Assembly: GCA_958296135.2 (NCBI GenBank)
Contig: CATQHZ020000001.1
Coordinates: 896,001-960,000, forward strand
Length of the DNA stretch: 64,000 bases
Reading direction: 5' to 3'
From: an uncultured Poribacteria bacterium
GTDB taxonomy: Bacteria; Poribacteria; WGA-4E; WGA-3G
Shown: piece after piece, positions 48,456 to 49,987 of the stretch
Layout: each line of letters begins with the position of its first letter
Position numbering within the stretch: position 1 is the first letter of the stretch
The notes under the pieces: generated by a model
The model's database searches: none
What the model was told of the DNA's origin: nothing
Seen by the model: only the letters and a program-made list of their open reading frames with translations
Made by a program: the position numbers and the translations under genes

Positions 48456-48557
48456 GGATTCTCCTTGTAAATGTTACAGAGATAGTATATCATAAAAGTG
48501 TGATATTTTCAATTAAAATCCGGTTTGGGAGAAAAACTTCATCAATTTTGATTTTTC

Positions 48558-48586
48558 TTGACATGCGTTCCATTTTTTGCTATAAT
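48558..48586 (+). promoter_or_regulatory. Consensus sigma70 promoter
   Basis: Exact TTGACA-17 bp-TATAAT with extended -10 TG and AT-rich upstream element. Confidence 0.85.
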
Positions 48587-48592
48587 TAATTT

Positions 48593-49470
48593 AGCAATGG
48601 TGAGCAGAGAATGGGCTATTTTTGCGGAAGTCCTGCGAATGGAGGGAATGCTCTGGCGCGGCTCCGATGCTGGCGCGAAAAAGATAGACTATGGCAATCC
48701 AAAAACCGAAGAACCCTGAATTACCTGCTGGGCGATATGATATTGTATCAAAGGAGGAGAGTGCTAGAGCCCGAAAATCCGAGTAAATCGATTGAATTCT
48801 CGGTAAGTCTCGTTCATTCGTAACATATCTGATTTAAGTAGTTTTATCTCTCAGGTGAGAGGATGGCGAACGGAGCGTGAAGAACGTTTCCTGCTGCACG
48901 ATACCAAGAGGCAGGCGTAATGTCCTAACCCCCCGTGTGAAGCGTATTAAGAGTCGGTGGTGCGACTGCATCGCTGACGGTGGAGGGGGCCGTAAGTCCG
49001 ACGCGATTCCCTGCCGATTTTTGCGTAGGTTGTTTGTAATAACAAACAACCGAAGATGTGTCATTTGGCTTTCGCAAATGACACTGCGCGCGGTCGACGG
49101 CGCAGCGTATTCGCAAAGCCGAATGCGCATCTTCGGCGTTCGGTAGTCCCGAACGCCTACGCCGTCGACCGACAAAAATCGGAGAAAGGATTGTTTCGCT
49201 GCAGTATCTAGAACTACAAAGAAAACGTCGCGGCTGGTTTGACCGAGACGCAAAACGCCTGTGGAGCTCGCGTAAGACCTCGTAGTATTCGCATTTCTCC
49301 GATTTTGACGCAGTCTTATTCTGTTTACAGAATAAGACATCTTCGGAAACCTGCTTGGAAACCTTCGCAAGCATGCCTACGTCAAAATCGGCAGGTGCGT
49401 TTCGGAGGCGGTAAGTGATGAAGCAGGAACTTAGAAGTCTCGACTTATCTCGATATGTTGAGACTTCGGG
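48593..49470 (+). ncRNA. Candidate large structured non-coding RNA (unclassified)
   Basis: No credible long ORF; more than 10 stems of 8-20 bp in a nested arrangement; strong promoter upstream; three covarying modules. Confidence 0.55.
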
Positions 49471-49506
49471 GAACAGACTATTCACAAATTTATATCGGAG
49501 GCGACG

Positions 49507-49824
49507 ATGTACGAATCTTCTGTTGTTCAACACTTCTTTCAACAAGGCATTGAGCAGGGGCTCGAGCAAGGACTTGAGCAGGGACTTGAGCGGGGTGCGC
49601 GAGAGAGCCTCATTGAAGGCATTCTTGAGGCCCTAGACGTTCGATTCAATTCCGGCGTGTCGCGGACCTTGCATCCGGTGCTTGAATCGATTTCAGACTT
49701 GGAGCATCTGAAAGTTTTGCGTCGTGAAGCGTTTCAGGTCCAAAGTCTTGAAGCGTTCGCGCAGACGTTGGCGGCAAATGGCAATGGCACCGAGCCTGCG
49801 AAGAAAGCGGATACCGCAGCATAA
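49507..49824 (+). CDS. Stand-alone Rpn (YhgA-like) C-terminal domain, RpnS-like
   Basis: GGAGG RBS; MYESS..Q, (G.EQ)n repeats, L..RF, L..I.D...L..L. Confidence 0.7.
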   Translation: MYESSVVQHFFQQGIEQGLEQGLEQGLERGARESLIEGILEALDVRFNSGVSRTLHPVLESISDLEHLKVLRREAFQVQSLEAFAQTLAANGNGTEPAKKADTAA

Positions 49825-49987
49825 TTCCGGAAGCATCTGTCGGCAAATCTTCTTGCGGGTAGAAAGTTTTTGTATGCGTTGGCGCGGAGGCATCTGCGCC
49901 GGTTTCCATCGGATGCCGACGGCCGCAAAGGCGAGCGTCGCTTTCGCGGAGACAGCAACGTTTGCCCTAGGAGTTTGAGAAGACGTT

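Follow-up and report, generated by a model that had tools for sequence, protein, structure and literature searches.

The locus examined here raises the question of what kind of sequence keeps its fold and its joining bases constant while its stems differ from copy to copy. The window (the whole stretch of 64,000 nucleotides that was analysed, part of the 5.0-Mb contig C1 of the genome) was described in an earlier note as carrying three copies of a module in which a closing stem, CGTAGG, a hairpin, CCGAAGATG, a second hairpin, CTGCG and the other arm of the closing stem follow one another in that order.

Three modules, their limits and their fold

The three copies were found to be laid out as described. 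The descriptor CGTAGG-N12-40-CCGAAGATG-N12-40-CTGCG gave exactly three matches in the window, while none of 100 dinucleotide-preserving shuffles (0/100) contained a match. The cores and the parts of the modules, in window coordinates, are as follows (scores are those of the covariance model).

49024-49088, + strand: core of copy 0
49101-49161, - strand: core of copy 1
49309-49381, - strand: core of copy 2
49012-49088, + strand: 5' part of copy 0, made up of TG, the 5' arm of the closing stem (P1) CCGATTTTTG, CGTAGG, hairpin 1, CCGAAGATG, hairpin 2 and CTGCG (72.4 bits)
49089-49172 (1 nt ambiguous), - strand: copy 1, a complete module with P1 of type CGGTCGACGG (77.3 bits)
49173-49183, + strand: 3' P1 arm of copy 0, CAAAAATCGG (caaaaatcgg, 49173-49182), and its terminal A (contig joint 49011->49184)
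49298-49393, - strand: copy 2, a complete module with P1 of type CCGATTTTGA, in site 2 of the host unit (78.2 bits; three-way junction fold, z = -7.8)

The true limits are therefore 49012-49183 for copy 0 including the nested copy 1, 49089-49172 for copy 1 and 49298-49393 for copy 2. Within copy 0, copy 1 separates CTGCG from the 3' P1 arm, and its proposed insertion there was confirmed by the paralogues at C1:1558k, 2279k and 825k, in which the equivalent of copy 0 is uninterrupted and CTGCG is followed directly by CAAAAATCGG. The joined forms 49011->49184 and 49088->49173 were also present in contigs from four runs of one sample, with a DNA-like even depth; these joints most likely come from paralogues (in the case of 49088->49173, paralogues without the nested module) and so add no independent evidence.

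Folded as single-stranded DNA, each intact copy formed a closing stem and two hairpins with GAAGAT unpaired (z = -6.7 to -9.7), in agreement with the three-way junction that had been read from the letters. Both the minimum-energy and the centroid folds of the modules were three-way junctions, none of 200 shuffles folded as well (0/200), and the two strands folded equally well. Pairing of copy 0 with copy 1 or copy 2, as further suggested, follows trivially from their being inverted related repeats.

The observation that the arms differ and still pair was borne out across the family. In a model alignment of 31 distinct sequences, which was fitted to the covariance model and so gives the structure some advantage (the hairpins are also readily seen in the raw sequences), pairing was kept in 96.3% of 890 cells, and 26 of the 29 pairs showed changes on both sides. 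The observed pairing was reached by none of 500 shuffles (0/500), and it fell to 30-47% when the partner was slid by one to three columns. In P1 alone, 10 of 12 pairs had changed on both sides, and at least four types of this stem were recognised (CCGATTTTKR, CGGTCGACGG, GGCGAKCG and CGAGAGCTG), all of which share the ends 5' TGC...GA 3'.

The invariance of the linkers, put at 20 of 20 bases from the window copies, had to be narrowed to about 16 of the 20, which are invariant or nearly so across the family, while the outer linker bases pair. When two linker mismatches were allowed, variants were recovered which included TGTAGG...CTGCA and ...GATT-hairpin-ATGCG. The outer linker pair had changed from C-G to U-A in 7 of the 31 distinct copies and the closing pair of hairpin 2 from G-C to U-A in one. 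As these outer bases change together they are part of the helices, and the junction is P1-UA-P2-GAAGAU-P3-UG-P1.

Filled, empty and nested insertion sites

Both outer modules of the window lie within a larger repeat.

48749-49478, + strand: host of the modules, a multi-copy non-coding unit of ~460 nt without inserts (7 copies on C1)

The other copies of this host unit are at C1:825k, 1558k, 2122k, 2279k, 3032k and 3579k. Site 1 was filled in 5 of the 7 copies and site 2 in 6 of 7; the copy at C1:2122193-2122651 was empty at both sites, and the copy at 3032k was without the first insert. The junctions were exact (...gattccc^gaaagg... and ...catttc^ggtgcg...), with the inserted piece being TG-P1-core-P1'-A, and both targets read CC^GAAA on the strand of the element, within what we read as small hairpin loops. 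The two module orientations were both found within one host unit.

Similar sites were present in other repeats. One TnpB insertion sequence has, in three copies, a module between ...ctaatctatc and gatgtgc... of its left end; of the 18 left ends listed, 5 read straight through the junction ...ctaatctatc|gatgtgc..., and most of the others have a different sequence at this point. Among six aligned copies of the left end of a second TnpB element, two were filled and two empty, and in both filled copies the outer module itself holds an inner one. Nested modules sit within the P1 strand and within hairpin-1 loops with equally precise joints; the hairpin-1 loops of the host modules at 825k, 2279k and 3579k, for example, hold other modules, and in one nested copy the core is inverted relative to the usual TG...A ends. 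The target was C^GA in 3/3 type-i events with an empty comparator, and T^G, G^C or others elsewhere. No target-site duplication was seen at any resolved insertion.

Paralogous host repeats are thus filled or empty at exact nucleotides without duplication, and the modules are therefore mobile DNA, although the empty sites could instead be precise excisions. In two of the site-1 modules (C1:825349-825439 and the region of C1:3579450-3579500), a different small palindrome, TAGGTCAGTCTGTGACCTG, takes the place of some of the GAAGATG spacer and hairpin 2 5' arm and may be one more very short insert.

The relationships of the modules did not follow those of their hosts. The host backbones at 945k and 1558k are 98.5% alike and their modules 89% alike, while the host copy at 3032k, which is the most diverged (backbone 81-83%), has a site-2 module that shares 88-98% identity with the other site-2 modules (97-98% with four of the five). 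As judged from these identities, the uncoupling would fit repeated independent insertion at one nucleotide; the independent insertion of different variants is favoured because the junctions are exact, and gene conversion between copies could account for part of the pattern.

On sequence grounds the host unit seems to derive from a TnpB insertion sequence that has lost TnpB, with a left end joined to an omega-RNA-like right end. Its 5' end resembles the left end of one insertion sequence family (score 52.5 versus a shuffle maximum of 47), and its 3' part is similar to the stretch that directly follows the TnpB zinc ribbon of the same family. The 3' part also gave a weak match (E = 0.13) to RAGATH-18, the guide RNA of IS607-TnpB, and the unit would appear to carry a guide-RNA scaffold. 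An ATG follows 10-36 nt downstream in 7/7 copies, with the sequence beyond it differing between copies. In the window, a 105-aa open reading frame (49507-49824) with a GLEQ-type repeat lies right after the host unit; its sole match was a weak one to Yae1_N, below the cut-off.

Contig C1 contains 34 TnpB (Cas12f1-like_TNB) matches from several element families, without a neighbouring TnpA. Three examples are given here.

C1:203239-204483: TnpB match
C1:4547723-4548802: TnpB match
C1:960237-961385: TnpB match, just past the end of the window

The ends of the modules resembled those of none of the TnpB element families examined.

Family size, distribution and REP background

The search of the genome that had been proposed in the earlier note did return further copies. 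The strict descriptor found 21 on C1, and a covariance model built from 22 copies (R1) placed at least 40 full-length copies in the genome, together with at least 7 interrupted (split or partial) copies; these counts are lower bounds, as 150 of the 2,152 first-look candidates were scored. By our tally, about 30 of about 47 copies sit in TnpB-related repeats, and the number of independent insertions is perhaps about 25. Outside other repeats, 10 of 15 copies overlap no open reading frame of at least 120 aa. The orientation bias that had been envisaged did not emerge, since the GTAG strand was on the G-rich strand in 10/14 independent copies, which is not significant, and the GC skew curve is irregular. 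The small contigs of the assembly (C2-C4) have a G+C content of 36.8%, 67.0% and 60.3%, compared with 54.4% for the main contig, a difference that may point to contamination or extrachromosomal DNA.

Among 61 genomes of the order (73 candidates scored per genome, with stricter filters than in the source genome), the model matched only the source genome and one congener. The congener has a single copy, with a U-A variant of the inner P1 pair. In an orthologous intergenic region of a congener the module is absent, and the sequence has diverged too far for an exact junction to be placed. Scans with exact patterns, which covered 185,579 species genomes and the JGI metagenome contigs and from which the records of the source genome were possibly excluded, returned chance matches only: the specific pattern gave one match in the genomes and two in the metagenome contigs, none of which fits the model, and one of these, when its sequence was inspected, looked like coding sequence. 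With a loose descriptor in species-representative genomes, the matches listed were chance ones, and the best of 80 rescored loci reached 29.6 bits compared with at least 58 bits for real copies.

Each element is 84-96 nt long and is enclosed by an inverted repeat (P1) of 10-12 bp, with an invariant spacer, CC-GAAGAT-G, between its hairpins. GTAG precedes hairpin 1 in 28 of 35 aligned matches and is mutated in the other 7 (two of them GGAG), while on the other strand hairpin 2 has the GYAG variant GCAG in front of it in most copies. The 7-mers of the hairpin 1 loop recurred in hairpin 2 on the bottom strand in 22/27 parsed distinct copies and on the top strand in 6/27 (4 of the 31 copies were unparsed, having degenerate linkers). 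Loop words shared on opposite strands indicate two units of one kind, placed head to head. The two hairpins within one module always differ, so that no single long hairpin can form and the strand is held in a 'clover', the three-way junction described above. The module hairpins were not found as free-standing repeats in the genome.

The genome is otherwise rich in repeats of the REP type. A perfect 7-bp hairpin within 0-2 nt follows GTAG at 1,340 of 26,496 sites (5.1%), compared with 0.17-0.49% for nine control tetramers, and ordinary GTAG hairpin singlets and head-to-head dimers are common. A search with Pfam Y1_Tnp found only two genes, both RAYT-like and with HUH motifs.

C1:3734400-3734870: RAYT-1
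C1:4791068-4791604: RAYT-2

Each of the two is embedded in a dense array of its own CCGTAG-tagged REPs. Cognate REPs or REPINs normally flank their RAYT; the model placed no module near C1:3734k or C1:4791k, where other REP families flank both genes. Relatives of RAYT-1 were present in 12 of 20 related genomes. For RAYT-2, the same 20 genomes contained no close relative (0/12 of those of the same family), and distant relatives were seen in 4 genomes of other families. The presence of RAYT-2 together with the modules in the source genome is a single coincidence, and the congener with one module (86% complete) showed no RAYT-2.

Explanations of the modules

We consider it probable that each module is a REPIN-like REP doublet, locked in the clover form and mobilised, as a single DNA strand, by a Y1/HUH enzyme acting in trans. 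By the same token the modules are best regarded, with somewhat more confidence than doubt, as small mobile DNA elements, lineage-specific and non-autonomous, of the REP/REPIN kind in a sponge-symbiont-like genome. This reading fits the exact filled and empty sites without duplication, the nesting, the inverted doublet, the REP-rich genome and its two RAYT genes. Against it stand the absence of modules flanking a RAYT, the canonical GTAG being present in one half only, an invariant GAAGAT without a counterpart known to us, the one nested copy with an inverted core, and a target that is not uniform. The earlier proposal of a GTAG-bearing single-stranded element that serves a HUH enzyme and inserts into itself is upheld by the first set of observations, with the differences that the enzyme is one that we infer and that the kind of element, being close to REP/REPIN, is not new. 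Whether the motif belongs to an already described REP or Rfam family, which the note had named as a point against its reading, received a divided answer: the modules have hallmarks of the REP superfamily, and no described family with this junction was found, nor any match in Rfam.

We infer the enzyme, the single-stranded intermediate, the cut positions and cleavage chemistry, and the reason for the invariance of GAAGAT, as follows. Each element would act as an inverted doublet, with hairpin 1 on the top strand behind GTAG and hairpin 2 on the bottom strand behind GCAG. During replication or repair the folded single strand would be recognised in trans by a tyrosine HUH enzyme, for which one of the two RAYTs of the genome is the obvious candidate. 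Recognition would be through the invariant junction bases and not through the stem sequences; the stems would then be free to vary provided that pairing is kept, which accounts for the covariation. The enzyme would cut at the ends (5' TG... and ...GA 3') and the strand would be rejoined into another single-stranded site without duplication, exposed hairpin loops probably being targeted often (C^GAAA was hit twice). Many copies would have been multiplied passively, because they are inside TnpB insertion sequences and their TnpB-less derivatives.

REPs are described as palindromes preceded by GTAG which are cut on single strands by TnpA-REP (PMC8266576), and variants of the tag (GYAG), stem changes that are complementary, and head-to-head dimers whose spacers are conserved are all on record (PMC3733652). 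For REPINs, the account of Bertels & Rainey (2011, PMC3116915) gives compensatory changes, a 'clover' proposed as the recognised form and, as evidence of mobility, a few excision reads. The modules are like the REPINs of that account in having two inverted REP-type hairpins with a short spacer, in that the doublet is the mobile unit, in their common compensatory stem changes, in being non-coding and intergenic, and in the presence of RAYT genes in the genome (PMC3116915). Unlike REPINs, they have heterologous hairpins, so that the long-hairpin form is ruled out and the clover is the only good fold, as well as an extra covarying outer stem, one GCAG tag and an invariant GAAGAT spacer. They also differ in flanking no RAYT, in a copy number (at least 40) that is low for a REP family, and in nesting in each other and in TnpB elements. 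We know of no counterpart of the invariant GAAGAT in described REPs. With the GTAG REP families and BIMEs, as treated by Di Nocera et al. (2013, PMC3733652), the modules share a GTAG/GYAG tag beside a stem-loop of 6-13 bp, sub-families that differ by complementary stem changes, and head-to-head heterodimers with conserved spacers; they are unlike them in that the outermost G bases of the tag take part in helices and in that the closing stem occurs in at least four covarying types.

The next reading is that of an IS200/IS605-style miniature element, which would have been moved by a classical Y1 TnpA that is now absent or unrecognised. PATEs are palindrome-associated miniature derivatives of this family; they share their ends with a resident full-length insertion sequence and insert, without duplication, 3' of a fixed tetra- or pentanucleotide. 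In such an element the two hairpins of the module would be on the same strand, with GTAG as the left guide and AGAT/GATG as the right guide, and it would be mobilised in the manner of TnpB-only insertion sequences. The exact ends, the lack of duplication, the invariant unpaired stretch 5' of each hairpin (the position of a 'guide' sequence) and the 34 TnpB matches without a neighbouring TnpA, together with the many modules inside TnpB elements, all accord with it. Insertion without duplication and folded single-strand ends are indeed described for IS200/IS605 (PMC8266576), and a strand-specific logic is possible. The loop words point in the other direction, as the hairpins correspond on opposite strands (22/27, versus 6/27 on the same strand). 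In addition, no end is shared with a resident insertion sequence, the ends of the TnpB elements having nothing in common with those of the modules; the target is not one fixed tetranucleotide; and the only Y1 genes found are RAYT-like with REP arrays of their own. A search for a long autonomous element bounded by module halves, although noisy, gave no candidate, coding TPR-like repeats dominating at two mismatches. We regard this reading as unlikely.

A bolder reading, to which we give a slim chance, is that the invariant UA/GAAGAU/UG junction is more than a REP tag with a spacer and defines a new class of mobile nucleic acid, in which it serves by itself as the core for recognition or catalysis. 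If this were true, the folded strand alone would set the sites of cutting and pasting (loops such as C^GAAA), with the stems fully exchangeable, and the core could work either through a HUH enzyme of its own that reads substrates by new rules or, conceivably, with some help from the nucleic acid.

The ribozyme or aptamer of the earlier note would be a functional RNA, that is, a self-cleaving ribozyme, an aptamer or a protein-binding three-way junction whose DNA copies spread secondarily. Invariant junction bases with strongly covarying stems accord with such an RNA, and many of the copies lie in a unit which resembles omega-RNA and is probably transcribed. The same kind of covariation is, however, described for palindromic DNA repeats, namely REPINs and GTAG REP families (PMC3116915, PMC3733652), and the module family is confined to one genome and one copy in a congener. 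No Rfam family matched the modules, even at E values of up to 10. With Rfam 15, only chance-level miRNA and snoRNA matches (E of at least 1) were obtained for 48500-49900, the whole window at the gathering score contained two tRNAs and nothing else, and scanning a host copy free of inserts identified no family for the module. Mismatches in the stems were 11 G-T and 10 A-C, so there is no wobble bias that would mark an RNA strand, and this, with the lack of an Rfam match, makes a ribozyme or aptamer very unlikely. Neither this idea nor that of a conformational switch gained support, both strands folding equally well and both orientations occurring in one host unit.

An equally poor prospect is that of attC-like sites, folded single strands that serve a site-specific recombinase. 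Conserved structure with variable sequence, invariant unpaired bases and repeated use of the same host nucleotide are compatible with such sites, against which there is no cassette-array organisation, no integrase was detected by Pfam among the six open reading frames beside the window copies, and it is the element itself that is inserted and not a gene between two sites. An ordinary MITE, for which a DDE transposase would bind the terminal inverted repeats, is already largely refuted and the least credible of all: although the elements are small, non-coding and nested with terminal inverted repeats of 10-12 bp, duplication is lacking at every resolved insertion and the 'terminal repeats' vary and covary around an invariant interior junction, which is the reverse of a MITE.

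Direct evidence for the movement of REP-type repeats is scarce. In this one genome, several sites can be compared filled and empty to the base pair, modules lie nested within one another, and diverged hosts have been hit repeatedly at the same nucleotide. If the modules are REPIN-like, the doublet held in the clover form would be a convenient natural substrate for testing the choice of substrate and target by RAYT-type enzymes, and modules in omega-RNA-like scaffolds would show where those RNAs tolerate an insertion of ~90-170 nt. Strong covariation among the repeats of one genome is, on its own, no sign of an RNA gene.

One REP head-to-head dimer of the genome (C1:2122105-2122167) scored in Rfam as the plant miRNA MIR7486 (E = 0.0003, below the gathering score). 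The match was rejected, as the sequence is a GTAG-tagged REP dimer and not a miRNA; it represents a false-positive trap for annotation.
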